Positions 197 through 61,316 of a stretch of DNA of 64,000 nucleotides are shown piece after piece (positions within the stretch are counted from its first letter, which is position 1; every line of letters starts with the position of its first letter). Source of the stretch: a virus (Duplodnaviria > Heunggongvirae > Uroviricota > Caudoviricetes); IMG/VR virus record IMGVR_UViG_3300017792_000001, positions 200,697-264,696 of that record. The stretch is one strand, 5' to 3'. The position numbers and the translations under genes were made by a program. The notes under the pieces were generated by a model. The model had not been told where the DNA came from. It was given only the letters and a program-made list of their open reading frames with translations, and did no database searches.

Positions 197-1024
197 ATGA
201 CGAAGATCAGTTTCCCACTCAAGTCCGAAGCCAACGTCAATATGTACGGGGATGGCGGTCACGGCTCGGTGCCGCAACTCCTGCCTTCTGACGAAGAACT
301 GGCGAACATCGAGAAGCAGCGCCGCGCAGAGGAACTGGAGCTCGAAAAGAACAAGGTCAAGCAGAAGCCTGACAACAAGAAGACCAAGGACTCGGACGAA
401 GATGGCGGTGATGTCGGCGACGAAGATGAAGACGCTGATGACGATGCCGATTCCGAAGAAGACGACGGTGAAGACGGCGATGATGCCGGTGATGAATCGG
501 ACGATGACGAGGAAGAAGATGAAGATGACGAAGCTACGGCTAGCGCTACGGCTGGCTCACGCAAGATCCGTCGGGTCGCTATCGCAGCAGACGGTGGCTA
601 CAACAATGTGTTCAGTGGCTTCCCTGGCGTCGGCAAATCCACTGTCTTCCGAAAAGCTGACGGCCTCGTTGTCGCAGACAGTGACAGCAGCACCTTCGAC
701 AAGTCCGAGTTCCCTGACAACTACCTGATGCATATCCAGGAAACCCGTCCAAACGTTGACGTGCTGCTGGTGTCGAGTCACAACGTGGTGCGCGACGAAC
801 TGGAAGAACGCGGCATCCCGTTCCATCTGGTCTATCCGACTGTTGATCAGAAAGAAGACTACATGAAGCGCTACCGTGAGCGTGGCAGCCCGCAACCTTT
901 CCTCGATCTGATGGATCAGAACTGGGAGAAGTTTATCGGCGAATGCGCTCAGCAAGTTGGCTGCACGCACGTTGTTCTCAAGCCCGGTCAGTTCTTGGGT
1001 GACGTGATCCAAGACTACCTGTAA
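197..1024 (+). CDS. P-loop NTPase/kinase-like protein with N-terminal leader and acidic linker (putative head-associated)
   Basis: Walker A GFPGVGKS in the C-terminal half; N-terminal MTKISFPLKSEAN leader, D/E tract, EATASATAG motif; RBS GAGG. Confidence 0.7.
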   Translation: MTKISFPLKSEANVNMYGDGGHGSVPQLLPSDEELANIEKQRRAEELELEKNKVKQKPDNKKTKDSDEDGGDVGDEDEDADDDADSEEDDGEDGDDAGDESDDDEEEDEDDEATASATAGSRKIRRVAIAADGGYNNVFSGFPGVGKSTVFRKADGLVVADSDSSTFDKSEFPDNYLMHIQETRPNVDVLLVSSHNVVRDELEERGIPFHLVYPTVDQKEDYMKRYRERGSPQPFLDLMDQNWEKFIGECAQQVGCTHVVLKPGQFLGDVIQDYL

Positions 1025-8316: not shown

Positions 8317-9186
8317 ATGACCCGCAAGAAGATCACCCACCCGCCGCGAAATGAAAAGTTGCTGCTGGACCAAATCGCAGCGTGCAAGACACCCGTGCAG
8401 GTCATGAAGCTGTTCGGGTACGGCGTTGAACATCTGCGTGACGATGTTGACTGGGGTTTCAACCCGGTGCAGTCGCCGTGGACGTTCGTGAGCCGTGATT
8501 GGGAAATGCGCTTCGACACCTGCCTCGATGCGACAAACAAACGCCTGCCAGTGTTTCACTGCATCAGCGTGGTCGAGTCGTCGAACAGTGGCTCGATGTT
8601 CACCCTGTTCAAGGCGACCAGCAATCTGCCCAACTTCAACTTCCCGGTGGACAAGAAGTATGCCGCCTCCTGGATCGTTGCAGAGTTTAGCCGGGCAGAC
8701 GGGCGCTTCCAGAACTCGATGATCATCGGCACGTTTGCTGAGGCTCTCAAGGCATTCGTGAAGATCGACCGCAAGAAGATGTCCGCAAGCTACGCTGAGT
8801 TGGTGACTGGCCTTGACCCGAGCAACCTGGGCAAACTGCGCACCAGCCTGCAAGATGCAATGCTGGACGAGATTGACGAGGCTGAGCAACAACACGCAAT
8901 GGTGATCGCGAGCATTCGCAACCGCCACCGCAACCAGCTCAACTACTTCACGGCATTGTTTGACGAGGCTCAGGCAGCAATTGATGCCAAGCAGAAAGCC
9001 CAGTACGCTTTCGAGTTGAACGGCTACCCGCCGAGCAAGATGTACACCACGTACAAGGAAGCACGTCGCTCCCACAGTCGTCGCAACACGCCGAACGTGG
9101 ACTGCGTGATCTACCGCTACGTGAAGAAACAACCCCAAAAGTTTGCGCGGTGGTCTGTCGATGACCGCGTGTGGATTATCCTCTGA
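8317..9186 (+). CDS. Hypothetical early protein, C-terminus paralogous to 7336..8268
   Basis: Shared YRxVxK..[YF]AxW.....W..L terminus; ATG 8317 preferred over GTG 8281. Confidence 0.7.
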   Translation: MTRKKITHPPRNEKLLLDQIAACKTPVQVMKLFGYGVEHLRDDVDWGFNPVQSPWTFVSRDWEMRFDTCLDATNKRLPVFHCISVVESSNSGSMFTLFKATSNLPNFNFPVDKKYAASWIVAEFSRADGRFQNSMIIGTFAEALKAFVKIDRKKMSASYAELVTGLDPSNLGKLRTSLQDAMLDEIDEAEQQHAMVIASIRNRHRNQLNYFTALFDEAQAAIDAKQKAQYAFELNGYPPSKMYTTYKEARRSHSRRNTPNVDCVIYRYVKKQPQKFARWSVDDRVWIIL

Positions 9187-9194
9187 GCACGAAC

Positions 9195-9509
9195 ATGACC
9201 AGCAAGAAAGAAGTATCGAACGACGAACAAGATTGGGGTGACTGCAACACAACCAGTATCGACGATCAGGCGACAACGCTTGGTGAGCAAAAGTTTTGCT
9301 GCCACCGCATGTTCTTCCTGGCGTACCTGATGATCACCCTGATAGTTTTTGGTTACATCACGCAACGCACCGAACATCTGAGCGGCGACGCTCTGTCTGC
9401 ATACTGGACTGGCGGCCTGCTGTGCTACGTCGCTGTCATGGCTTGCGGTATGTTACTCCACGCACTTGCAATCTTCGACCTAACCGTCAATCATTATACC
9501 AAGGACTGA
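9195..9509 (+). CDS. Membrane protein (2 predicted TM segments)
   Basis: Two hydrophobic stretches; ACGAACATG start. Confidence 0.65.
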   Translation: MTSKKEVSNDEQDWGDCNTTSIDDQATTLGEQKFCCHRMFFLAYLMITLIVFGYITQRTEHLSGDALSAYWTGGLLCYVAVMACGMLLHALAIFDLTVNHYTKD

Positions 9510-50047: not shown

Positions 50048-50054
50048 TAATTTA
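50048..50054 (+). promoter_or_regulatory. TAATTTA candidate late promoter
   Basis: 24 nt upstream of the 50079 start. Confidence 0.55.
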
Positions 50055-50078: not shown

Positions 50079-51425
50079 ATGGACCTTGCACTAGCGGCCA
50101 CTTCTGATTTTGCCGGGTATACATACACCAGCAAGACCAAGATTCTGTTCGACGATCACCACGATGAATACGAAGTGGACTTTGTTGAAGGTGACAAGTT
50201 CAAGATTCAGATCAACGGCGGTAACGTCATCCTTATCCATGCCGATGCACCAAAGGTGAAATTCATCTGCCCGGTCACGGATAAGAAGTACATCAAGCTC
50301 ATGCGCGGCAGTACGCCCGCTGCTTTCGAGTTTATCCCAACACCGAAATTTCCGCACTACCCATTTATTCCGCGATTGACCTTCGAGTTGATCCCGCATA
50401 TCTACGAATACCTGAACAACACCTACTTCAACGGCATGTGCCCGAAGTCGATTCTGTTCAAGAAGTCCACGTCGAAAGAAGCACTCGGCGTTGCGATGTA
50501 CGACAAGGTTCGTGGGCGTGAACTGTTCCGCATGAAAGTCAACATGAAGATGATCGGCAACGATATGATCCTCTTCATCGACACCTTGCTCCACGAAATG
50601 ATTCACCTGTACTTGTACCGCAAAGGACTTGATCAACACCGCAACGATATCCTGCAAGATGGCCATGGCGTGTACTTCCAGGCTGAAATGAATCGACTGA
50701 ATAAGCTCGGGTTCAACATCAGCATCATCCTGCAATGGGAACAGCGGGATCAGGAGATTGCCAGTGAGTATTACGTGCTCGCGATCACTGACTCGAAACA
50801 CCCGAAGAACGGCAAATACTTCTGGACCACGACCAACATTGAGCGTGACTTCCAGACGTTCGTTGCGCAGATCACCAAGTATGATCCAGCATCGCTGTTC
50901 ACCATCGAATTGTACGCCACCAAGAATCAGGCGCTCAAAGGGCAACCGATGATACAGACGAACGGGAAGATCCCTGAGTCGAAGCTGGGTCTCTGGTGGA
51001 AGAAACAGGAAGTTGGCGGTCGCATGGTGCAGTCTTTCCAAGTGACACCTCAATCTGCGGTGGATAGCAACCAGTTCATCAAGGTGCCGAAGGCCGAGGA
51101 AGTCTACTACGCCCAGCCGCTTGCTGTGTTCAGTAGCTGGTTGCGGAAGACCAAGATCAACTATGCCAATGACGATGCAGCGTACTCAATCTGGATTCGA
51201 TTCCCAGTTGCGAAGATCATCCCGTTCGCTGAGGCCGAGTTGATTGAAATCCACAAAGCCCTTGCACGTGGACTTGCTGATCAGGATATCAAGCGCCGTC
51301 TTACTGCCGTGTTCGCTCGCTTCGACAACCGTGCCAATCAGGGCGAGTATCGTCGTGCGATTACCGCCATCATTGAGAAGCATAAGCTGGATGCTTTGCT
51401 TCAATACCCGCAATTGGGACTCTGA
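50079..51425 (+). CDS. SprT-like zinc metalloprotease domain protein
   Basis: YLNNTYFNG, TLLHEMIH (HExxH), GHGVYF. Confidence 0.8.
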   Translation: MDLALAATSDFAGYTYTSKTKILFDDHHDEYEVDFVEGDKFKIQINGGNVILIHADAPKVKFICPVTDKKYIKLMRGSTPAAFEFIPTPKFPHYPFIPRLTFELIPHIYEYLNNTYFNGMCPKSILFKKSTSKEALGVAMYDKVRGRELFRMKVNMKMIGNDMILFIDTLLHEMIHLYLYRKGLDQHRNDILQDGHGVYFQAEMNRLNKLGFNISIILQWEQRDQEIASEYYVLAITDSKHPKNGKYFWTTTNIERDFQTFVAQITKYDPASLFTIELYATKNQALKGQPMIQTNGKIPESKLGLWWKKQEVGGRMVQSFQVTPQSAVDSNQFIKVPKAEEVYYAQPLAVFSSWLRKTKINYANDDAAYSIWIRFPVAKIIPFAEAELIEIHKALARGLADQDIKRRLTAVFARFDNRANQGEYRRAITAIIEKHKLDALLQYPQLGL

Positions 51426-51428
51426 CCT

Positions 51429-51911
51429 ATGGGCCGCAAGGAAGTAACAAAGGCACTTACCGAGGCAGTCACTCATTACTTCGTCCACAAGATGTTTGCC
51501 GTGTTCCCTGAATTCGGTGTTGGTCGTCGTGGTGAGAGACGCCTTGATCTAATGTGCTTGCACACCAGCTTGAACGTCACCGGTATCGAGGTTAAAAGCT
51601 GCAAAGCTGATTATGCTGCTGACAAGAAATGGATGGAGTACTTGGCTTACACCAACAAACTCTACCTAGCCTTACCGCCGAGCATGATCGACTCGCCTTT
51701 CTACGAAAAGATACTCGCCGATATTACCCCACACGGTATTGGAGTGATGACACTCGCTCCATCAGGGTACATGATGGTTGTCAAACCGGCAAAGAGCCGA
51801 GACGTCGATGACCTAGTCATTGGCAAATTGCTGGTTAAGATGGCCTGGCGTGGAGGCGCCTCACGAAGGAATGTCTCCCGTAGAAAACGAATCTTTCTGG
51901 AGGAAAAGTAA
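51429..51911 (+). CDS. MmcB-like PD-(D/E)XK nuclease
   Basis: RLDLM..IEVKSCKADY..DKKW.EYL.Y...Y. Confidence 0.75.
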   Translation: MGRKEVTKALTEAVTHYFVHKMFAVFPEFGVGRRGERRLDLMCLHTSLNVTGIEVKSCKADYAADKKWMEYLAYTNKLYLALPPSMIDSPFYEKILADITPHGIGVMTLAPSGYMMVVKPAKSRDVDDLVIGKLLVKMAWRGGASRRNVSRRKRIFLEEK

Positions 51912-51912
51912 C

Positions 51913-52566
51913 ATGGCAAAGAAGCATCGTGGCGCGTTTATCTCAGTCGAAGGCCTTGATGGTGCCGGCAAGACCTCCAACATCCGCAACCTTGACAATC
52001 GGTTTGCGCATGGGGAAATGCCGTATTTCATCGCAAGCGAGTACGACGACAGCAAGTTCTGCAAGGGCATTCGTGACTCGCTGAACAACCAGAATCCAAC
52101 ATTGGATCCTGTTGCCGAAACCCTGGGGTTCTACCTCTCGCGTATCGAGCACACCCAGAAGATTCTGGCGCCGTATCTCAAGTCCGGCACGACCGTGATT
52201 ACGGACCGCTACTATCACAGCACCCTTGCGTACCAAAGCATCAAGCTGCAAGAAGCCCGTGTGCATGACATTCACAACATGGTCAAGGATCGCTTGGTAG
52301 AGCCTGATCTGATCCTGTTCTATGACATCCCAGTGGACGTGTACGAAGCCCGTGTGCGGATGCGTGGCAAGTCCCTGGACAAGATCGAAAGCCGTGGTCT
52401 GGAGTATTTCACCCAAGTCCGCGCTAATTTCCACAAGTTAGCAGTGAATGACCCACGCTTTATCGTGATCGACGCCTCGGTTCCACTTGAGGATGTCTTC
52501 ATCGAAACACAGCGTGTGGTTGACGAATTCCTAAGGACTTTCAATGAAAATCTCATTCAGCCTTAA
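51913..52566 (+). CDS. tmk: Thymidylate kinase
   Basis: FISVEGLDGAGKT, VITDRY, STLAYQ, PDL, IDAS. Confidence 0.92.
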   Translation: MAKKHRGAFISVEGLDGAGKTSNIRNLDNRFAHGEMPYFIASEYDDSKFCKGIRDSLNNQNPTLDPVAETLGFYLSRIEHTQKILAPYLKSGTTVITDRYYHSTLAYQSIKLQEARVHDIHNMVKDRLVEPDLILFYDIPVDVYEARVRMRGKSLDKIESRGLEYFTQVRANFHKLAVNDPRFIVIDASVPLEDVFIETQRVVDEFLRTFNENLIQP

Positions 52567-53011
52567 GTCACGCATCAAAGCGTTGGCGATGTCCACCAAC
52601 CGACTACCTGACGAAATCATTGCAAACCTCGTCAAGGGTCGGAAGCATTGGCGTGACCTGCCTGCGCGTCTTTCCTATCTACCGGTTCTCCATAAGGGCC
52701 GGTACATCGGTGTAATGAACGAGCAAAGCCCGCACGAAAACGCCGTTGCGTATGCCAAACTGCACAAGCTGGATGTGTGCGTCGGTTACGTTGTCTGGCG
52801 TGAAGAACCATCACTGCCATGGAAGATTGAACCGTACTCATTTTGCGTGAGACCAGATGATGATCGCGTGGTTGATCCCACAAAAGGTCATGACTGGTCC
52901 AAGATGAAGGTTTACTACCTCGGCTTCCGCGTTCCCAAGAAGGATATTGCTGGATTGAAGTATCTGCACTACTTCGAACGGATGCAGTACGTCCAGCAGC
53001 ACGCTGCATGA
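52544..53011 (+). CDS. Hypothetical protein with MKISFSL leader
   Basis: AAGGA RBS; TAATTTC at 52425. Confidence 0.65.
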   Translation: MKISFSLKSRIKALAMSTNRLPDEIIANLVKGRKHWRDLPARLSYLPVLHKGRYIGVMNEQSPHENAVAYAKLHKLDVCVGYVVWREEPSLPWKIEPYSFCVRPDDDRVVDPTKGHDWSKMKVYYLGFRVPKKDIAGLKYLHYFERMQYVQQHAA

Positions 53012-53021
53012 GGGTTGCACC

Positions 53022-53984
53022 ATGTCTCAGGCTTATGACGCACCGGTATCCATTGTTCTGAACAAAGATGTCCTTTTGACGCCTGAGACTCAGCGACTGC
53101 TGGCTGGTTTGGGCATCAACCCAAAAGAGACCAGCCAGTTTGAGTTGGTTGGAAGTGTGATGTCTCACAAGCACATGGTGAGTTCGTGGATTGTGTTGAA
53201 GATGCGGATCACGGCTATCCTGAAATCAGGTGTGCCGTACGCTGGACTCGACGACATCATGGCGATCACCATCAGCAACATCGCGCCCATTCAAACGGTA
53301 CGTGTTGCGCCAGAGGCAGAGCAAGAAGAGGTGTATCGGGTACGTGACCCGTTAATCACCAACAACATCGGCATTATGCCAAACGAAGAACTGGTCATCC
53401 GTCGTTCAGGTGACCTTTTGTCGTTAGCGCATGAGCAGTTTGAAATCCAGCTAAAGGAATGCGACCTGGCGAAGATCAAGGAGAAAAGCGTGCGCAAGGA
53501 GCGATACGCTGTGATCATGCCAGACGAAAGCATGTGGCGGGTCGTCTCGTTACAAGGCTACAGTCTTGCCGAAGTCATCGAGCAAGTCCAAGTTGCGCCG
53601 GAAGCGATGTTCTGTCGCTCTGGTATTGAAACAGGTTACTACAGCACTCCAGCTTTATTTCGGTTGAAGCGCACCATCTATAAAACAGACGGCAAGAAGA
53701 CCCACGTACTCAACTGGCTGCAACACCTGTACTTGTACGGTGAGTGGCCAGAAGATGCAGAGCTAGAACACCCGATCGTCATGCGTTGGAAGTCGATGCA
53801 CAAGGTACCCGACTTCGACACGGACGAGTTCGTTCAGTTCATGGCATTCCATGTGTGCCGCCATCGTTCGCTGACTGCTACTGTCCGCACCGAAGGCCGC
53901 ATGATTGTCACGGACAAAGGGCCAGTTCGCCCGCGTGACTTCTTCGCCCAATACGACGAGATTGCCCATGCAAACCAGTCTTAG
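53022..53984 (+). CDS. Hypothetical protein
   Basis: 320 aa ORF, GAGG RBS. Confidence 0.65.
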   Translation: MSQAYDAPVSIVLNKDVLLTPETQRLLAGLGINPKETSQFELVGSVMSHKHMVSSWIVLKMRITAILKSGVPYAGLDDIMAITISNIAPIQTVRVAPEAEQEEVYRVRDPLITNNIGIMPNEELVIRRSGDLLSLAHEQFEIQLKECDLAKIKEKSVRKERYAVIMPDESMWRVVSLQGYSLAEVIEQVQVAPEAMFCRSGIETGYYSTPALFRLKRTIYKTDGKKTHVLNWLQHLYLYGEWPEDAELEHPIVMRWKSMHKVPDFDTDEFVQFMAFHVCRHRSLTATVRTEGRMIVTDKGPVRPRDFFAQYDEIAHANQS

Positions 53985-55647
53985 TGCAGTCCAGAAGGAT
54001 TCGGTAGTTGCCTTCCTAAAACTCCTGGCCACTCTGTACGTTACCTACGACCAGAAACTGACGAAGGAACAACTCCGTCGGATGAACATGTGGGCATCGG
54101 AAGCAGAGGAATTCCTCACCAAGTTCAAGCTCAAAGCCCTCGCTGCCAAGGCCGTGCGTCTGGTAGTTGCTGGCGAAGACCCAAACACCGACGATGACAC
54201 TGACAGCGCAATCAGTGACTTCCTGTTGGAGTTGAAAGACCGCACCCCGTTGTTCCAGAAGGAAACGGACATCAGCCGCATTCAGATGGGCTTGATCAAC
54301 GACTTCCGTCTCGCGCACTTCGGGTCTGAAACTGCAGCCAAGCGATTGCTCAAGGGCGTTACGTCCATCGGCGATCCAATGGTCACCCAGTTTTACCAGC
54401 ACGACTTCGAAAGTCTGGATCACGGCAGCGTGTACTCCAAACTTCAGGCATTGGTGAAAAAGTACGGTAAAGTGCCGGGCTACATCATGCCAACCGAAGT
54501 GCTGGAAGCGTGGCAAGCAGAAGCGAAGGCCAAGGGCGTCAAACACCCAGGCCATGCCGAGTACCTGATGTTGCGTCGTGAAGTCAACGACATCTACAAG
54601 AAGGCTCTGGCGAACATCGTCCGTGGTGCCAACGAGAAGTACCTGCCACTGCGCGACGTTGTGCAGAAGCTCAAGGGTATGGGCGTTGTCCACAACCTGC
54701 CAACCGGGTATGTCGGTAACATCGACGACTTGGGCAACTTCTACACCACCACTGGTAAGAAGCTGCTCCAGAACCCAAGCGGCGAAGTGCTGATGAATCC
54801 GAAGTACGATGCGGATCAGGACAATGCGTATGTGTGCTCGTTCACACCGCCATTCGCCCAGAAGCCAACCCGTGCTTACACCGTTGAGTATCGTCAAGAT
54901 GCCAAGGGTGCCAAGTTTGAAATCGTCAACGACATCCTGCCGAAGCTGAATGCTTTGACCAAGAAGTGGTTGCCGGATCTGCGTCATGTCGGCAAGAAGA
55001 AAGAAGGTACTCTGGCTGCGTTGTGTGAGTTCATCTATGACACCTCTGCCCGCGTTGGCAACAAGAACGCGAACACTGGTGGCGTGAAGACTTACGGTGC
55101 CACCCAGCTTGAAGCCAAGCACTTCAAGTTTGCCCAGAACTCCTGCACCATCAAGTACGTCGGCAAGTCCGGCGGTGCCCAGGCCCACAAAGTCTCGTTC
55201 ACCTCTGTTCGTGGCAAGCAGCTCGGCGAAGCGCTGAACAAGCTGGCTGCTGGCAAGAAGCCTACTGATGCGGTATTCACGTTCAACGGTGAGCAAGTAA
55301 CTGGCACCATGATCAACCGCTATCTGCACAAGCTGGGCTTCCCGCGTGAGTTCACCGTGCATAAGCTGCGTACTGCGCGTGGTACTCAACTGGCGATGGC
55401 TATCCTGAACTCCAGCCCTTTCAAGAAGGGTGATGGCACTAAGGACACCGTCGTTCACAAATGGCTTGAGACTGAGCTATTGAAAGTCGGTTCGGAGCTT
55501 GGGCATATGTCGGGTGAGAAGGTCACCAGTGCTACAGCGATCCAGAACTACATCGCTCCTGAGATTCTGGCGCAGTTCTATGCCAAGCTCGGTATGCGCC
55601 CATCTTCGAAGGTCCAGAAGGCCATCGACTCCGCAAGCAAGGAATGA
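53968..55647 (+). CDS. DNA topoisomerase IB-like protein with a long N-terminal extension
   Basis: Catalytic pentad: ARVGN (R), YVGKSG (K), HKLRT (R), ELGH (H), TAIQNYI (Y); TYGATQL also typical of TopIB. Confidence 0.85.
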   Translation: MQTSLSAVQKDSVVAFLKLLATLYVTYDQKLTKEQLRRMNMWASEAEEFLTKFKLKALAAKAVRLVVAGEDPNTDDDTDSAISDFLLELKDRTPLFQKETDISRIQMGLINDFRLAHFGSETAAKRLLKGVTSIGDPMVTQFYQHDFESLDHGSVYSKLQALVKKYGKVPGYIMPTEVLEAWQAEAKAKGVKHPGHAEYLMLRREVNDIYKKALANIVRGANEKYLPLRDVVQKLKGMGVVHNLPTGYVGNIDDLGNFYTTTGKKLLQNPSGEVLMNPKYDADQDNAYVCSFTPPFAQKPTRAYTVEYRQDAKGAKFEIVNDILPKLNALTKKWLPDLRHVGKKKEGTLAALCEFIYDTSARVGNKNANTGGVKTYGATQLEAKHFKFAQNSCTIKYVGKSGGAQAHKVSFTSVRGKQLGEALNKLAAGKKPTDAVFTFNGEQVTGTMINRYLHKLGFPREFTVHKLRTARGTQLAMAILNSSPFKKGDGTKDTVVHKWLETELLKVGSELGHMSGEKVTSATAIQNYIAPEILAQFYAKLGMRPSSKVQKAIDSASKE

Positions 55648-55650
55648 TCC

Positions 55651-57039
55651 ATGCAGATTTCATTTCCGATGTCGATGCCTGCTTCAATTCAGGCAACTGC
55701 TGCCGCTCTGGCTGACATCAAGAAAGGCAGTACAGTCGCGATTCAAGTGGACACGCGCAAATGGTTCCTGGGTACTGTCACCAGTAAAGGTAGCAAGAAG
55801 ATCGCGGTCGATACCTTTGATGGTGTTTACTCGATTGCTACCGAGGACGTGGACGATGTTGTGCGCAGCGTCGATCTGTCGGCTATGAAAGCTGCCGAAG
55901 CCAAGCGTGCAATGAAAGCCACGTACACCGCTACCCAGTTAAAAGCGTTGACGCCGAAAGCAGCAACCAAGACCGCACTCAAAGCGCCGAAGGTCACTGC
56001 ACCTGCGAAGCCTCCGAAGGCTGAACCCAAGGCCAAGGTGATTGATCAGGAAGTAGGTAAAGGCAGCAAGCTTGCACCTGCTCCGAAGACGAAGAAGGTA
56101 GCTACTGCCAATCTCTACGGCATGGCATCGTTCACTCGTCGTGACGGCACGAACCCGATGGTCAGCATCTACAAGAAGATTTTCGGTGCCAGTCCACCAC
56201 ACGCGGGTACGAAGTTCAAGGTGAAAGACGGTAGTGATTCGCTGATGTGCGAAGTAAATCACATGGTCAGCAACCACGTCATGGTAGTCGATACCGAAGC
56301 GCGCCGCAATGTGGAGTTCATCTTCGTCAAAGACCAAGGTGTTTACCGCAACGACGAATACAGCGCCATTCCAGCACAGTATCAGAATCTGGTCAGCAAG
56401 CCACGAGCGCAGACCAGTATGCCAACGAAGCCGAGTCCGAATGTCAGCACCAAGACACCAGCACCGCGCATCGTTGAACCGTACAGCTATCGTGACAAGT
56501 ACGGCGAGACGGAACTGACCGACGCAGCCCTGCCTACTGACATCAGGGATCCAGCGATCTACAAGCAGACGTTCTACGGGCGCGTGCTGAGTACAGGTCG
56601 GGCATCGTCTCACCTGAGTGAGGTAGTGATCGTTGGTACTGGCACCTTCAAAGGCAAGACTGCCTGGGTAGCGTTCCCAATTCGCGACAAGACTGACCGT
56701 CCACGTCTGCTGTACTACCCGATCCATGCACCGAAACCTGAGTGGCTCACCAAGCCGCAAGTGTCGTTCGAGGATCTGAAACGCTACCGCCTGCGCAGTC
56801 AGCAGAAAGCGGAAGTGATGAATGATCGCAAGGAGAAGAAGGCTGAACTGGGTGCCCAAGTGGCCCAGACCATGGAGCTTCGTGTAGGGTATAACGCCCT
56901 GATCAAGTTCAGCAACGGCAACTTCTGGAAGCAGATCCTGCAAGTCGATCATGACAAGCAAGTGATCTACATTCAAGGTAGCCGCACCAAACGTCGCACC
57001 ATTCCGTTTGCTCTCATCCAGCAGACTGCACAGAAATAA
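55651..57039 (+). CDS. Multidomain basic protein with MQISFPM leader (putative internal head protein)
   Basis: SH3/KOW-like beta segments joined by K/P/A linkers. Confidence 0.6.
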   Translation: MQISFPMSMPASIQATAAALADIKKGSTVAIQVDTRKWFLGTVTSKGSKKIAVDTFDGVYSIATEDVDDVVRSVDLSAMKAAEAKRAMKATYTATQLKALTPKAATKTALKAPKVTAPAKPPKAEPKAKVIDQEVGKGSKLAPAPKTKKVATANLYGMASFTRRDGTNPMVSIYKKIFGASPPHAGTKFKVKDGSDSLMCEVNHMVSNHVMVVDTEARRNVEFIFVKDQGVYRNDEYSAIPAQYQNLVSKPRAQTSMPTKPSPNVSTKTPAPRIVEPYSYRDKYGETELTDAALPTDIRDPAIYKQTFYGRVLSTGRASSHLSEVVIVGTGTFKGKTAWVAFPIRDKTDRPRLLYYPIHAPKPEWLTKPQVSFEDLKRYRLRSQQKAEVMNDRKEKKAELGAQVAQTMELRVGYNALIKFSNGNFWKQILQVDHDKQVIYIQGSRTKRRTIPFALIQQTAQK

Positions 57040-57050
57040 GTGGAGCGTTT

Positions 57051-57245
57051 ATGAAGATTCGTATCACAATGAAGGCCGAGGCTAAGGAGGCAGGCGGCGG
57101 AAACTTCTCCGCAGACTTCGCAAAGGCTAAGGCTGCAGTAGCCGCAGCCACCCGTGACAGGGATAACGCCCAGGCCGCATTGGATCTGGCCCAGACGCGG
57201 TTGAATAAGATGGTAGAGGCTCAATTGCAGCGTTACGCCGCATAG
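57051..57245 (+). CDS. Small coiled-coil protein with MKIRITMKAEA leader
   Basis: GGAG RBS. Confidence 0.6.
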   Translation: MKIRITMKAEAKEAGGGNFSADFAKAKAAVAAATRDRDNAQAALDLAQTRLNKMVEAQLQRYAA

Positions 57246-57340: not shown

Positions 57341-57347
57341 TAATTTA
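57341..57347 (+). promoter_or_regulatory. TAATTTA candidate late promoter of the head operon
   Basis: AT-rich intergenic region upstream of scaffold and capsid genes. Confidence 0.6.
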
Positions 57348-57417: not shown

Positions 57418-59445
57418 ATGACGAAGCCCACTATCCGCGGTATCGTTGTTGCCGGTAACTCTCTGGAAGAAGCACAAGAACTCTATCGCGCTGTGGCTAC
57501 TGGCCAAGACGTAAAGGCAATGCACGACGAGGGTGAAACCTTCGTTGTATTGTCGTCCGCGAAGTCCGATATCAGCATGATCAACCCACTGACTGGTGCG
57601 GACGATCTTCATGTTGGTGACGGCCTGACCGAGCAGATGGAATTCTTGTCTTCCGACAGCGAAGCCGTCAACATCAACTACACCGTGTGCCTGGCCGGCT
57701 GCCAAGCTCACGTCCTCGCTGACGACGCTGAAATGCTCACTCACTGCCCGGCCTGCGCTTCTGTGCTGCCTGAGCTGACTGCTGAGCAAATCGCTGCGCT
57801 GGCTGGCGAAGACGAAGACGAAGGTTGTGAAGGCTGCCAACTGGCCGCTATCGCTTCCGGCGCCACGCTCGAAGAAGCCGTTGCGAACTACCAGGCCATG
57901 GTGCTTGGTGAAAGCGAAAGCCCGCAGACCATCAAATGCGGCGACGTTCTCGTTTCCGTTGCTGGCGCTGGCGCGTTTGACCCGTACAAGGGTTGCGCAT
58001 CCACCATCGTCAAGCATGAACCCGAGTACCTGGAATCGTTGGCTTCGACCAGCGCCGAACTGGATGCTCACCACTTCGTTTGTGCTTCGAGCACCTGCGA
58101 AGCGCCGCACGTCGTTTCGTCTGACGACATGCCTGTCTTCTGCCCATCCTGCTCCAGCGGCCTGATGGAAGTTGACGACGTTCAAGAAGGTACCGAAGCC
58201 AACGCTGGTACTGACGACGAAGACGAAGACGACAACGATCAGGACGACAACAACGAAGCGAACGCCGGCACCGAAGATGATTCGGAAGAAGCCATCGCTG
58301 CTGCTGATGCCGACCTGGATCGCGAAATCGAAGAAGCCCTCGCAGGCTCCGACGATGACGACGACTCGGACGAAGATGACGAGGACGACGAAGACTTCGA
58401 AGACGACGATTCCGATGAGGATGAAGACGACGAAGAAGAGGAAGACGAGGACGAAGACGAGGATGATGAAGACCTCGGCGATGACGAAGATGAAGACGAA
58501 GAGGATGAGGACGAAGAAGACGACGCCCTGACCCTGTCGGTTTCCTCCGTCGTTGAAACTCCTGCCGTCACCCGCGCCCGCAATCGTCAAGAAGCCCGTG
58601 CTTCGGTTCAGCAAGAAGAACAGGAAAGCGAGCAAATGACCGCCGTTGCCGCATCGTTCATCGCCACTGCCTCTGCGCAGAGCGAGCTGGACGTCAAGAA
58701 AGTCGAAGTTACCTACAGCGCCCTGGCGTCGGGTAACAAGTGGTTTGCATTCTACGACGGCGTGCCGTTCGCAGTAGCAACCGCAGCGTCTGCTGAGAAG
58801 CACTCGCAAATCTTCAACACCGATGTCTTCGGCCGTGCGTTCCTCGCACAAGCCAGCGAGCAGGGTGTGAACGTCGCAGTCGAAAACATGGGCTTCCAGG
58901 AAATCAAACCTGAAATCCAAGTTGCCGATTACGTGAAGTCCGAAATCGACCAACAGGTTGAAGTGAAGACCAACGAAGTCGCGCAAGCTGCTGCGCAAGA
59001 AAAAGCTGAACACGCTGACCGCCACTTGGCTGCCATGGCACTCGCTGCTACTGGTCTGACCAACAACTTCTTCAAAGGTCACGTCAACCCGATTGCCCAG
59101 CAACTGATCGAGTCGCTGTCTGCTGTCGGCCTGGATAACGCCGCGTCCCTCGTGAACCAAGCGTTCGTCCAGAACAGCGAAGCCTGGCACAAGATGCTGT
59201 TGGCACAAGCCAGCAAGATCATGAGCTACGGCCTCGACGCCCAGAACGAAATCGCCGAAGCTATCACCGGGAGCAATCCTGTTGAAGCAAACGCCAGCGC
59301 TTCGCCGGTGTCCATCGGTCGACCAGTTCAGGTTGCTCCAAAAGTTCCACAACAGGAGTTCGTTGAAGCCAACGCCTCCGTACAACCATCTGCTGATTTC
59401 AATACCCTGCTCGCTGGTGCGATGCGCGGGATCGGCAAGCGCTAA
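57418..59445 (+). CDS. Prohead core / scaffolding protein
   Basis: Upstream of capsid genes; Cys clusters, long acidic tract, helical C-terminus, repeated EANA[GS]. Confidence 0.65.
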   Translation: MTKPTIRGIVVAGNSLEEAQELYRAVATGQDVKAMHDEGETFVVLSSAKSDISMINPLTGADDLHVGDGLTEQMEFLSSDSEAVNINYTVCLAGCQAHVLADDAEMLTHCPACASVLPELTAEQIAALAGEDEDEGCEGCQLAAIASGATLEEAVANYQAMVLGESESPQTIKCGDVLVSVAGAGAFDPYKGCASTIVKHEPEYLESLASTSAELDAHHFVCASSTCEAPHVVSSDDMPVFCPSCSSGLMEVDDVQEGTEANAGTDDEDEDDNDQDDNNEANAGTEDDSEEAIAAADADLDREIEEALAGSDDDDDSDEDDEDDEDFEDDDSDEDEDDEEEEDEDEDEDDEDLGDDEDEDEEDEDEEDDALTLSVSSVVETPAVTRARNRQEARASVQQEEQESEQMTAVAASFIATASAQSELDVKKVEVTYSALASGNKWFAFYDGVPFAVATAASAEKHSQIFNTDVFGRAFLAQASEQGVNVAVENMGFQEIKPEIQVADYVKSEIDQQVEVKTNEVAQAAAQEKAEHADRHLAAMALAATGLTNNFFKGHVNPIAQQLIESLSAVGLDNAASLVNQAFVQNSEAWHKMLLAQASKIMSYGLDAQNEIAEAITGSNPVEANASASPVSIGRPVQVAPKVPQQEFVEANASVQPSADFNTLLAGAMRGIGKR

Positions 59446-59461
59446 CTCCTGGAGATAAACC

Positions 59462-60148
59462 ATGATCGTTCAAAAATACACTCGTCTCTTTCTGTCCGAG
59501 CACCGCAAAGTTGAAAGCGGTGTCATCATCCAGGAAGAAGGCCAAGCAATGGTCAACGTCAAGGAAAACGGCGAAACTGTCGTGCGTCCTTCGACTGGTG
59601 CTGCTGGTGAAGTCTTCGCCGGTATCTCCATGGCCCGCAACACTCCGCCGACCACCCTGCAGTGGGTTGCTCAAGGCGTGATCCCTGATACTGGCGCCGT
59701 CGAGCTGCCGCGTACCCCGATCACCGGTCAGATCCTGGTCAAGGTCGGCACCGACGTTGCAACCATCAGCGCTGGTGCTCCTGCATCTGCTACTGAAACC
59801 CAGCTGGCCGGTGACGTGATCACCTTCCACGCTGACAACATCGGCAAGAACTACTTCGTCCAGATCGCTTACGAGCCTGGTATGCAAGAAGCTCTGCAAC
59901 TGGTTGGCTCCATGCCGATCGGCGGCCTGGCTGCTACCTACCAAGGTGTGGTCGGTGTCATCACTCGTGGTGAAGTTGCGACTTCGTTCTACGATGCCGC
60001 TTCCGACTGGTCCACTGCCCTGAAAGTCAAGCTGGGCGCTGATGGCCGTTTCACCACCTCCGGTCCTGGCGATGTTATCCCAGGTCTGACCGTGATCAAT
60101 GCGCCGTCGTCCGAGAACTCTGCTCTCACCCTGCGCGTCAACGTTTAA
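59462..60148 (+). CDS. Head structural / decoration protein
   Basis: Between scaffold and MCP; all-beta, G/A/T-rich. Confidence 0.6.
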   Translation: MIVQKYTRLFLSEHRKVESGVIIQEEGQAMVNVKENGETVVRPSTGAAGEVFAGISMARNTPPTTLQWVAQGVIPDTGAVELPRTPITGQILVKVGTDVATISAGAPASATETQLAGDVITFHADNIGKNYFVQIAYEPGMQEALQLVGSMPIGGLAATYQGVVGVITRGEVATSFYDAASDWSTALKVKLGADGRFTTSGPGDVIPGLTVINAPSSENSALTLRVNV

Positions 60149-60200: not shown

Positions 60201-61316
60201 ATGTCCAAACCAGCATTCGCCGGTGCAAGCCTTGTCCTGAAGGACGGCAGCCCAATCACCGACCTGCGCCTCGGCAAAGGCCGTGAACTCGCTCTGTCCG
60301 CTTCGACTGGCGACATCAACGCTTCGAGCACCAAGGACGCGATGGTTGTCCTGGGCCAACTGATGCAAGCATACGCCTCTGGCGAAATCATGCATCAACA
60401 GCCACAGACCATGTCTGCGCGCGAAGAAGCCACCGCTGCTACCGAAATGCGTCGTCAAGTTCTGGCCGAAGCCCGTGCTGACGTGACCGGCGCCAAGTGG
60501 GCCGCCCTGGGCGCCTCCCTGGCTCAACAAGTGAACGAACAAGCTGACCGTGAAGGCTTCGTGCGGAAGCTGATGGTCGGTAACACTCTGACCCAGGGTC
60601 AGTTCCAGCGTATCCCGATGCCGACCCATGACACCATGGCCGTCATCGCTACCTCCAGCGCGAACGTTGGTTACCAGACCATCCGTAACCGCGTGTTCAC
60701 CCCGGACGAGTTCGAAATTCAGGCCAACGTTCGCGTTGAAAACCTGGACATCCAACAAGTCAACGGCGACCTGCTGGATCACGCGTACAACGACGCGCTG
60801 CAATCCATCATGGTTGCAGAAGACCGTCTGTGGAAGAAAGCTGCTGACGCCACCGTCGGTGTTGTCAACAACCTGGAACTGATCGCTGGCGAACTGACCA
60901 CCAAGAACCTGGGTCGTCTGCGTCAAGCCATCGCTCGCTGGGGCCTGCCTGCTACCCACATCGTGATGTCCAACGATTACTGGGCTGACGTCATCGGTTC
61001 GAACGACTTCGCAACGTTCTTCGACCCGATCACCAAGTACGACCTGGTTCTGAACGGCCAGATCGGTACCCTGGTTGGCATGAACATCATCACCGACGCA
61101 TTCCGTCAGCCGAACCAGAAGGTTCTGAACCCTGGCGAAATCTACGTGGTGGCCTCGCCTGAGAACCACGGTGCCTACTCCACTCGTGGCGGCATCCAGT
61201 CCTCGCCTACCAACGGCGCTGACGCTGGTAACAGCACCCGCGGCTGGTTCATGGTTGAACCGTTCAGCTTGGTAATCGCGAACGTGCGCTCCGTGGTCAA
61301 AGGTCGTCGCATCTAA
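60201..61316 (+). CDS. Major capsid protein (HK97 fold)
   Basis: 371 aa; strong codon bias; MVAEDRLW, GQIGTLVGMNIITD, PGEIYVV, GWFMVE; position in head operon. Confidence 0.85.
   Translation: MSKPAFAGASLVLKDGSPITDLRLGKGRELALSASTGDINASSTKDAMVVLGQLMQAYASGEIMHQQPQTMSAREEATAATEMRRQVLAEARADVTGAKWAALGASLAQQVNEQADREGFVRKLMVGNTLTQGQFQRIPMPTHDTMAVIATSSANVGYQTIRNRVFTPDEFEIQANVRVENLDIQQVNGDLLDHAYNDALQSIMVAEDRLWKKAADATVGVVNNLELIAGELTTKNLGRLRQAIARWGLPATHIVMSNDYWADVIGSNDFATFFDPITKYDLVLNGQIGTLVGMNIITDAFRQPNQKVLNPGEIYVVASPENHGAYSTRGGIQSSPTNGADAGNSTRGWFMVEPFSLVIANVRSVVKGRRI

Follow-up and report, generated by a model that had tools for sequence, protein, structure and literature searches.

Unrelated proteins of a PaBG-like jumbo phage start with a common leader, a possible capsid-targeting peptide

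Several otherwise unrelated proteins of a PaBG-like giant (jumbo) phage start with the same kind of short peptide, and this leader exists under selection at the peptide level. Judging from its sequence, it may be a capsid-targeting peptide of the type known as the capsid-targeting sequence (CTS) of phage T4, in a version characteristic of the PaBG/Lu11 jumbo phages, a reading to which we give about an even chance. The DNA analysed here, termed the window, is a stretch of 64,000 nucleotides (positions 200697-264696 of the 277,601-bp phage genome), and 341 called genes served as the gene set for genome-wide counts. About 70% of the genes in this jumbo-phage lineage are orphans. The argument refers to the following features of the window (a slash marks the putative cut):

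197-1024, plus strand: P-loop kinase-like protein, 275 aa, with the leader M-T-K-I-S-F-P-L-K-S-E/A at 197-232
50048-50054, plus strand: TAATTTA motif of the late-promoter type, 31 nt ahead of the SprT-like gene (50079)
52544-53011, plus strand: basic protein, 155 aa, pI 9.6, with the strict leader M-K-I-S-F-S-L-K
53968-55647, plus strand: type IB topoisomerase (TopoIB), 559 aa, pI 9.5 (Pfam Topoisom_I, 1.3e-14)
55651-57039, plus strand: basic protein, 462 aa, pI 9.9, with the leader M-Q-I-S-F-P-M; first ORF of the slot between the TopoIB and scaffold-like genes
57051-57245, plus strand: Ala-rich basic protein, 64 aa, with the leader M-K-I-R-I-T-M-K-A-E/A; second ORF of the slot
57341-57347, plus strand: TAATTTA motif of the late-promoter type, 77 nt ahead of the scaffold-like gene
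57418-59445, plus strand: very acidic protein, 675 aa, pI 4.1 (PHROG 20988), candidate scaffold or core protein and possible leader receptor, just upstream of the gp81-like and capsid genes
59462-60148, plus strand: gp81-like virion structural protein (PHROG 16710)
60201-61316, plus strand: major capsid protein, 83% identity to PaBG gp80

The earlier note on this DNA had described a shared start on the unlike ORFs at 197, 52544, 55651 and 57051, and this is confirmed: on re-reading of the sequence all four start as had been quoted, each with a ribosome site of the GAGG/AGGA/GGAG type 5-8 nt ahead, and BLASTP detects no similarity among the carriers past the first ~9 residues. Translated in all six frames, the entire 277,601-bp genome contains four copies of the strict motif, [KQ]-I-S-F-[PS]-[LM], i.e. 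at 197, 52544 and 55651 in the window and, beyond it, in a 122-aa protein (genome positions 77701-78069, start M-K-I-S-F-P-L-R-S). Every copy lies at the second or third residue of a called gene that has a Shine-Dalgarno site. Based on N-terminal composition only 0.00025 occurrences at N-termini are expected, a figure that is generous because the motif was defined after the data had been seen. In a null test, in which residue columns were shuffled among the proteins and N-terminal pairs with at least 6/8 identities were counted, 10 such pairs were observed (three from the leader trio, the remainder true paralogues) as compared to an average of 0.45 and at most 4 after shuffling. As the DNA upstream of the leader genes is unrelated between copies and the codons for Ser, Lys, Ile, Phe, Pro and Leu vary at their synonymous sites, the likeness is maintained at the peptide level.

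The leader is composed of Met, one or two residues, Ile, a polar residue, Phe/Ile/Trp, any residue and Leu/Met, so that polar and hydrophobic residues alternate without a long hydrophobic run, and it is captured by the loose motif M-x-I-x-hydrophobic-x-L/M. Its carriers are mostly basic (pI 9-11.4, the proteome median being 6.3). The flavour of the leader is specific to each genome and common to non-homologous proteins, e.g. K-I-S-F-P-L (four times) in the studied phage, I-K-I-N-L-x-E-A (three times) in PaBG and M-K-V-N-I-A-L-A (twice) in L064, and in the studied phage several flavours are found side by side. On the 52544 protein the leader is retained in orthologues at ~70% identity, with 8/9 metagenomic orthologues keeping M-K-[IV]-[ST]-F-x-L-K; this protein has no Pfam or PHROG match, and its AF2 model is poor (pLDDT 51) with residues 1-19 being unstructured.

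The tie between leader genes and head genes that the earlier note had drawn is borne out by an enrichment in several related genomes. Loose leaders concentrate near the prohead protease and scaffold-like genes of the studied phage, PaBG and phage NCTB; with head-gene zones drawn post hoc, after the data had been seen, the loose motif is found on 8/25 head-zone genes vs 9/316 genes elsewhere in the studied phage, on 5/24 vs 7/275 in PaBG and on 7/16 vs 13/286 in NCTB. Across 32 dereplicated related loci 34/177 ORFs upstream of the scaffold gene match, about one third of these matches being a glycosyltransferase false positive, vs 6/233 ORFs downstream. The position of the scaffold-like gene itself is conserved in 59/59 related loci. 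The Erwinia-phage branch (Y3 and Yoloswag types) belongs to the same group as the studied phage; it keeps the protease and scaffold genes, and the neighbouring ORFs carry no such leaders.

The slot between the TopoIB and scaffold-like genes was compared in the studied phage, PaBG, L039/L048/L051, L047/L049 and NCTB, and in four genomes the leader heads every ORF in it though the cargo differs. Both slot ORFs of the studied phage (55651 and 57051) carry it, as do an ORF of PaBG and PaBG gp83 (both ..I-K-I-N-L-x-E-A), the three ORFs of L039/L048 (two with I-[KQ]-W-K-A-E-A, one with Q-I-T-F-P-I) and all three ORFs of NCTB. Thus, cargo genes vary between relatives while the type of leader stays: the 55651 protein has no PaBG orthologue and shows a weak relationship to the NCTB and L048 slot ORFs in its C-terminal part. 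The small leader ORF between the PaBG TopoIB gene and gp83 is without annotation in the current record (KF147891). PaBG gp86 and gp151 retain the leader as well, and together with gp83 and the PaBG head module (KF147891) they are direct orthologues or positional counterparts of the parts described here. In the accessible part of the PaBG virion study (PMC7412058), whose dataset comprises 14 Coomassie bands, band 9 of the purified virions was assigned to gp83, gp81 is detected in virions, gp80 sheds ~20% of its mass upon maturation, and the scaffold-like protein is not among the 14 bands; of the virion proteins listed there as 'Unknown' (gp81, gp83, gp191, gp261 and gp263) gp83 alone has the leader. 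The same part of that paper states that some virion proteins are processed, names no cleavage sites and does not mention a shared leader (PMC7412058).

From its predicted structure, the phage encodes a prohead protease of the gp21/assemblin fold (g181, genome positions 126292-127032, PHROG 18299). The AF2 model (pLDDT 88) has T4 gp21 as best structural match (5jbl_C, Z 11.7, rmsd 2.8 Å, 149/166 residues), followed by herpesvirus proteases with Z ~5, while at the sequence level there is no match in Pfam or the PDB; PaBG_00226 is annotated as prohead core protease. Proteases of the gp21 class cut after Glu (PMC9026906), as do all of the characterised head proteases of this class (PMC9026906, PMC5694885), and the specificity of gp21 was originally worked out on a glutamyl-alanyl bond (PMC9026906). 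By reading, ~10/16 loose-motif leaders near the head genes of the studied phage and PaBG have a Glu-Ala 8-14 residues from Met. With a stricter regex, i.e. Glu-Ala at residues 7-17, the counts are 6/15 leaders vs 16/326 other proteins in the studied phage, 3/6 vs 9/293 in PaBG and 0/13 leaders in NCTB, and among the strict-motif proteins those at 52544, 55651 and genome position 77701, three out of four, have no Glu-Ala nearby. The second head locus, which runs from a ligase via the protease to an Acb1-like gene, additionally contains three K/R/A-rich proteins with a pI of 10-11 that have ..I-R-I-Y-L-D-G-T-F-E-A in common. The small-x-small ([AS]-x-A) cleavage that had been proposed for the leader finds no support, as the sole head protease found has the gp21 fold and this class cuts after Glu; if the leader is cut, its removal after Glu is most likely. 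For the maturation site of the capsid protein no conserved Glu could be fixed.

In T4 the CTS comprises 10 residues (PMC9026906), is found on the internal proteins IPI, IPII and IPIII and on Alt, and is removed by gp21 (PMC9026906, citing Mullaney and Black 1996). Likewise, the leader described here is a peptide of ~10 residues that opens mostly basic proteins with nothing else in common (that of the 57051 protein has exactly 10), the cargo genes vary between relatives, a gp21-fold protease is present, and the leader often ends in Glu-Ala, the type of bond first shown for gp21. Since Asp at position 10 of the T4 CTS stops cutting and not targeting (PMC9026906), leaders without Glu could still target. 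We class the leader as a CTS-like variant and not as the T4 CTS because there is no sequence resemblance by inspection; the studied leader is rather an alternating hydrophobic strand, I-x-F/I/W-x-L/M, present in several flavours in a 277-kb PaBG-type jumbo phage. The phiKZ group, i.e. phiKZ, 201phi2-1 and SPN3US, also consists of jumbo phages whose gp21-related protease cleaves after Glu, and their head and inner-body propeptides are cut at S/A/G-x-E by gp175/gp245 (PMC5694885, PMC9026906). The identical N-termini of the diverged SPN3US head proteins gp53 and gp54 are reminiscent of the shared leader, and T-F-E, a published 201phi2-1 cleavage site (PMC5694885), parallels the I-R-I-Y-L-D-G-T-F-E-A leaders. 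However, propeptides of the phiKZ group mostly have at least 100 residues and sit on paralogues, whereas here 8-14 residues precede non-homologous proteins. PaBG gp83 and the small PaBG ORF have Leu at P3 of the putative site, and Lys or Ser is frequent there in the other leaders, unlike P3 Leu/Ile in T4 (motif L/I-x-E) and P3 Ser/Ala/Gly in phiKZ.

Because of the placement of the TAATTTA motifs the run 50079-57245 looks like one late operon, which probably starts at the motif at 50048. Of the 10 TAATTT sites in the window seven fall between genes, and such sites precede tail-assembly, scaffold-like and sheath genes. The statement that leader genes lie downstream of TAATTT is not confirmed, in that none of the leader genes in the window has the motif directly upstream. 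The suggested enzyme cocktail stands in part. Packaging of the P-loop kinase has moderate support from sequence comparison: the 197 protein consists of the leader, an acidic linker and a kinase domain (residues ~137-273, to which the PHROG 4182 match is restricted), its orthologue PaBG gp151 has a conserved N-terminus with S-A-E/A, the leader is also retained in HRDY3, and in L052 the orthologue (start M-K-V-L-L-S-L-A) is located between protease and scaffold. A homologue of the kinase domain in phiR1-37, g133, was labelled 'phage structural protein' by its depositors. Support for TopoIB as cargo is weak, coming from its late-operon position and from synteny, with the gene inside the head module in NCTB, L072, L075 and L094; its N-terminus is not a leader in the studied phage and is leader-like in relatives only (M-H-I-S-L-S.., M-L-I-T-L-S..). 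The 'shorter versions' of the leader noted for 50079 and 53968 do not match the motif, and SprT, tied to the leader genes by the common late operon and nothing further, has no support as cargo.

Several other explanations have to be considered. The leader might be recognized by another common partner, e.g. a chaperone, a modifying enzyme, a host or phage protease (as an N-degron) or a DNA-bound replication compartment, without any role in capsid loading. The kinase gene, surrounded by replication genes and not by late genes, fits this idea, which we nevertheless consider unlikely, given that in several genomes carriers cluster near the genes for protease, scaffold and capsid, that the positional counterpart gp83 is a published virion protein (PMC7412058), that Glu-Ala follows many leaders at a CTS-like distance, and that the loci examined contain no candidate partner enzyme whose distribution follows that of the leader. 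It is more improbable still that the starts share no function at all, being ordinary first β-strands combined with chance and a post-start bias towards Lys, Ile, Ser and Phe (A/T-rich codons). The loose pattern is indeed generic, matching the N-terminal strands of a sliding clamp and a glycosyltransferase, and the first codons of leader genes are A/T-richer than the genome; yet the strict six-residue motif is confined to four N-termini in six frames, the column shuffle is exceeded although it keeps positional composition, flavours specific to one genome turn up repeatedly on non-homologous proteins of PaBG, L048 and L064, and kinase homologues of other phage groups lack the N-terminal extension.

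The common starts might instead be remnants of modular recombination, 5' ends that were copied between loci and have yet to decay, with the peptide itself unselected. This would agree with the clearly recombination-prone, variable slot and with the three basic proteins of the second head locus, which are alike over 18-53 N-terminal residues as partial duplications would be. The saturated synonymous sites and unrelated upstream DNA, together with the persistence of the leader in 52544 orthologues and on the kinases of PaBG and HRDY3, make this highly improbable. Equally hard to credit is a cleavage at [AS]-x-A with loading of the whole late operon, SprT, TMK and TopoIB included, into the head, even though [AS]-L-[ASG] is conserved ahead of an invariant M-S-T-N-R-L-P in the 52544 orthologues, the operon has a late-type motif and relatives show synteny of TopoIB with head genes. 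A-x-A is the rule of signal peptidase and requires a hydrophobic core, and the leaders have no Sec-type core (~10 or more residues before A-x-A); moreover, the protease fold speaks for Glu, and SprT, MmcB and TMK are leaderless in every relative compared.

For the capsid-targeting peptide we infer docking, packaging, Glu-Ala cleavage and ejection. Points that speak against it are the leaderless Erwinia-phage branch, the lack of Glu-Ala on three strict-motif proteins and on the NCTB leaders, the unlike P3 residues, the kinase gene among replication genes, the generic loose motif with its post hoc zones, and gp83 as the one leader carrier among the five 'Unknown' PaBG virion proteins. The leader would form a short N-terminal amphipathic strand through which the freshly synthesised protein attaches to the prohead core, the partner probably being the acidic scaffold-like protein or the protease itself, and the capsid shell would then close around the docked cargo. 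On the carriers with Glu-Ala, about half of them, the gp21-fold protease may remove the leader at this bond, 8-14 residues from Met, and the mostly basic cargo would remain with the DNA and enter the next cell alongside it. Going further, and on doubtful ground, we speculate that PaBG/Lu11 phages use a co-evolving, genome-flavoured N-terminal address code, which is read by the prohead core and pre-loads a changeable, enzyme-containing cargo for delivery with the DNA, i.e. basic DNA-coating proteins, the P-loop kinase, an Acb1-like enzyme (the gene for this anti-CBASS phosphodiesterase is two genes from the protease) and perhaps TopoIB.

If the leader is a capsid address, a simple sequence rule would predict the head-borne proteins of a poorly known jumbo-phage lineage, and the leader could serve as a packaging tag in the engineering of Pseudomonas jumbo phages; if it is not, the tag still marks some shared interaction. 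In the former case CTS-type loading would not be limited to T4-like phages, but would travel with the gp21-fold protease into distant lineages, the peptide code drifting with its receptor. The possible cargo, i.e. kinase, Acb1-like enzyme, TopoIB and basic proteins, bears on how incoming DNA may be protected without a nucleus-like shell, and, should the address code be true, counter-defence and DNA-handling activities would be in the cell before phage gene expression.

Several otherwise unrelated proteins of this phage begin with the same short peptide. The N-termini at 197, 52544, 55651 and 57051 are exactly as quoted in the earlier note, and a further carrier beyond the window (genome 77701) begins M-K-I-S-F-P-L-R-S, but the 'shorter versions' claimed for the SprT-like and TopoIB proteins do not match the motif.

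Leader carriers and neighbouring genes (window numbers are gene starts unless a range is given)
Window 197, + strand: P-loop kinase-like protein, strict motif
Window 50079, + strand: SprT-like protein
Window 52544, + strand: strict-motif carrier
Window 53968, + strand: TopoIB
Window 55651, + strand: 462-aa protein, strict motif
Window 57051, + strand: leader-bearing protein
Window 57418-59445, + strand: acidic scaffold-like protein
Genome 77701: strict-motif carrier

The six-frame translation of the genome contains the strict motif [KQ]ISF[PS][LM] at four places, always at residue 2-3 of a gene, whereas 0.00025 occurrences are expected at N-termini, the motif having been defined post hoc. Permuting N-terminal columns among proteins yields 0.45 pairs with at least six of eight identities versus ten observed, three of which come from the leader trio and the remainder from genuine paralogue families. 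Every carrier is preceded by a Shine-Dalgarno-like site. As the 5' DNA of the carriers is unrelated, synonymous positions of the leader codons differ between copies and the carriers share no similarity with one another outside the leader, the likeness is real and maintained at the peptide level. The leader is very probably a selected, shared signal. The unrelated upstream DNA and the differing codons also rule out a DNA-level motif (promoter, RBS, downstream box), and paralogy is ruled out for the strict set, although it partly holds for three basic proteins of a second locus.

The window is part of a single 277,601-bp contig (bases 200697-264696), with all its genes on the + strand. The closest named relative is the Pseudomonas phage PaBG (Baikalvirus), whose TopoII large subunit is 80% identical and which matches 220 of the 341 genes called here; genes of this phage, PaBG, NCTB and the related loci were called by one routine, which relied on a self-trained codon model and a rule for ribosome sites. 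Neither the region nor the 462-aa protein found a match in the phage collection by nucleotide search and tblastn. A related-locus scan from the single sequence gave one 5-kb contig, 96% identical, and a 266-kb relative, reached via the 52544 orthologue, was read over 20 kb. Scanning IMG/VR for DNA coding M-K-I-S-F-P-L-K-S returned eight matches, all short random ORFs on unrelated contigs.

In PaBG the leader of the 52544 protein persists in gp86 and that of the 197 protein in gp151. Nine orthologues of the 52544 protein from metagenomes (66-97% identity) were compared, and eight begin M-K-[IV]-[ST]-F-x-L-K. A ribbon-helix-helix reading of the 52544 N-terminus was set aside, as it found no Pfam match even at E of 10; the AF2 model (pLDDT 51) is too poor to bear on it. 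In the distant relative HRDY3 a 230-aa protein corresponds to the N-terminal module of the kinase protein minus the kinase and starts M-K-I-T-I-S-I-P, the stand-alone kinase being leaderless; moreover, homologues from other phage groups align to residues ~137-273 only. Thus, the leader region is an add-on to the catalytic domain. In L052 a kinase orthologue (48% identity) lies between the protease and scaffold genes and starts M-K-V-L-L-S-L-A, followed at once by the P-loop. The genome-77701 carrier adjoins two basic proteins; in L053 and L054 their homologues directly precede the scaffold gene.

Comparison with PaBG, NCTB and the relatives shows that the leader belongs, as one flavour among others, to a looser pattern: Met, one or two residues, Ile/Val, x, hydrophobic, x, Leu/Met/Ala/Ser. 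Its occurrences cluster in two neighbourhoods. The first is the slot between the TopoIB and scaffold genes, whose proteins (64-591 aa) are mostly dissimilar in sequence and all bear a leader.

Leader-bearing ORFs of the TopoIB-scaffold slot
This phage: 55651 and 57051
PaBG: unannotated ORF and gp83, both ..I-K-I-N-L-x-E-A
70% relative (L039/L048/L051): three ORFs, two ..I-[KQ]-W-K-A-E-A, one Q-I-T-F-P-I
L047/L049: one ORF, M-K-I-L-I-S-L-S
NCTB: three ORFs

The unannotated PaBG ORF (KF147891; L001 about 9117-9360, + in the locus; GTG start, ..I-K-I-N-L-N-E-A) is orthologous to the 80-aa ORF of L039/L048 and appears to have been lost at re-annotation (protein id gap AGS81968). About 1.6 kb beyond the window, an 83-aa acidic protein (genome 266281-266532, +; L043) whose gene is flanked by those for sheath and tube begins M-S-K-I-Q-W-K-A-E-A, the flavour of two L039/L048 slot ORFs.

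The second neighbourhood extends from the DNA ligase gene through the gene following the prohead protease. In this phage it holds three K/R/A-rich proteins (pI 10-11) with a common ..I-R-I-Y-L-D-G-T-F-E-A, a 501-aa protein (M-L-V-S-L-S-L-A) whose place beside the protease is conserved throughout the group, and an Acb1-like protein starting M-M-I-K-L-S-M-K-K-E-E-A.

Genes around the prohead protease
Genome 124557-125090, - strand (L041:1557-2090:-): Acb1-like protein, outside the window
Genome 125197-126177, - strand (L041:2197-3177:-): alginate lyase
Genome 126292-127032, - strand (L041:3292-4032:-): prohead protease, PHROG 18299

Within head zones drawn post hoc, the loose pattern occurs in 8/25 proteins versus 9/316 outside for this phage, 5/24 versus 7/275 for PaBG and 7/16 versus 13/286 for NCTB. 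Across 32 dereplicated loci retrieved around the gp81-like gene, it marks 34 of 177 ORFs on the upstream side of the scaffold gene and 6 of 233 on the downstream side. About one third of the upstream matches come from a glycosyltransferase, the first strand of which fits through its fold, and orthologues cannot be counted as independent. The enrichment is real, though weaker than the raw p-values would imply.

Encoded two genes away from the protease, the Acb1-like protein contains two H-x-T motifs and gives a Pfam hit to Acb1 (anti-CBASS 2H phosphodiesterase, PF23474; 2.3e-14). Its leader ends Glu-Ala, as does that of its PaBG orthologue, and that of the L054 orthologue ends Glu-Gln; a role as a counter-defence enzyme carried in the capsid is possible. 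The alginate lyase (PF08787, 1.2e-34), which adjoins the protease and lacks a PaBG orthologue, is possibly a virion-borne depolymerase for mucoid Pseudomonas. Several basic head-neighbourhood proteins share the N-terminal motif W-F..K..Q..Y-[IV]..H-P-x-S-x-Y-A (genome 78078-78860, g131 and g132; genome 127384-128889, g183; L053, L054, L044, L099; NCTB 187111-188562), which looks like the signature of a second module of proteins associated with the head, so far undescribed in these phages.

The prohead protease has no sequence match in Pfam or PDB, but its AF2 model (22 homologues, pLDDT 88) best matches T4 gp21 (Foldseek probability 1.00; VIA-align Z 11.7, rmsd 2.8 A over 149 residues), followed by herpesvirus proteases (Z about 5). 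Characterised proteases of this class cleave after Glu: the T4 rule is L/I-x-E, first seen at a glutamyl-alanyl bond, phiKZ uses S/A-x-E, and T-F-E-275 is a cleavage site in 201phi2-1 (PMC9026906, PMC5694885). In this phage and PaBG many leaders have Glu-Ala 8-14 residues from Met, among them those of the 197, 57051, three basic and Acb1-like proteins of this phage, and of gp83, gp151, PaBG_00219/00220 and the small slot ORF of PaBG. By a regular expression over residues 7-17, leader proteins have it in 6/15 cases versus 16/326 others here, and in 3/6 versus 9/293 in PaBG. The spacing agrees with the capsid-targeting sequence (CTS) of T4 internal proteins, which is ten residues long, its front part serving targeting and residues 8 and 10 serving processing (PMC9026906). 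Weak points are that Glu-Ala is absent nearby in the 52544, 55651 and genome-77701 proteins and from the NCTB leaders, that P3 is not uniform, and that neither candidate Glu for capsid-protein maturation is kept across the group.

At its own N-terminus the protease reads ..S-T-S-F-S-L-G-x-A-P-V-E, similar to the K-I-S-F-S-L leader and with a Glu after it, and residues 3-10 form a strand in the model; T4 gp21 itself is suspected of CTS-like propeptides (PMC9026906). The scaffold-like protein, whose labels 'ATPase' (PHROG) and '60S ribosomal-like protein' (PaBG) look spurious, has two V-E-A-N-A-S repeats near its C-terminus, like the Glu-Ala-Asn junction of the kinase leader.

The PaBG virion analysis reports 14 Coomassie bands identified by MALDI. 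They include gp81, gp83 (35 kDa, unknown function) and the capsid protein, which has lost ~20% of its mass, and several proteins occur in more than one band (PMC7412058). Hence a leader-bearing slot protein, gp83, is a virion protein. The virion proteins of unknown function gp81, gp191, gp261 and gp263 have no leader, so the leader is not the sole route into the particle. The kinase-domain homologue g133 of phiR1-37 was labelled 'phage structural protein' by its depositors; among the papers searched, no usable virion proteome came to light for Lu11, AD1 or phiR1-37.

Seven of the ten + strand occurrences of TAATTTA in the window are intergenic (29661, 40514, 42329, 46964, 50048, 57341, 63939), preceding tail-assembly, scaffold-like and sheath genes, and one lies 31 nt upstream of the SprT-like gene. 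Its position before structural genes and the SprT-to-57245 operon suggests that TAATTTA is a likely late promoter core, and the tightly packed run of SprT, MmcB-like, thymidylate kinase, 52544, 53022, TopoIB, 55651 and 57051 has the look of a late operon. Late expression would fit with products destined for the particle. TopoIB maps within the head module in NCTB, L072, L075 and L094. SprT, MmcB and thymidylate kinase are leaderless in this phage and all the relatives compared.

The simplest reading is that the leader is a CTS-like capsid address whose sequence is particular to the lineage and which often precedes a Glu-Ala processing site; we consider capsid loading about evenly balanced, and cleavage at Glu-Ala in any given protein less probable than loading. 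Generic first strands plus start-codon bias, as the glycosyltransferase illustrates for the loose pattern, are an unlikely explanation of the likeness, given the excess of the strict motif over expectation. Recombination scars are an unlikely source of the shared starts, the upstream DNA being unrelated and the synonymous positions different. Recognition by some other common partner is a less probable reading than capsid loading; it has to be weighed against the head-zone enrichment and gp83. The [AS]-x-A cleavage of the earlier note finds no protease to match, since the only head protease found has the gp21 fold, and a Sec signal peptide is ruled out on leader composition.

If TAATTTA is a late promoter core, SprT-like, MmcB-like nuclease, thymidylate kinase and TopoIB proteins, i.e. 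enzymes of DNA-metabolism type, would be among the late genes. A capsid address of this kind is already known from T4; new here are the phage lineage, the peptide pattern, the several flavours side by side and the candidate enzymatic cargo.
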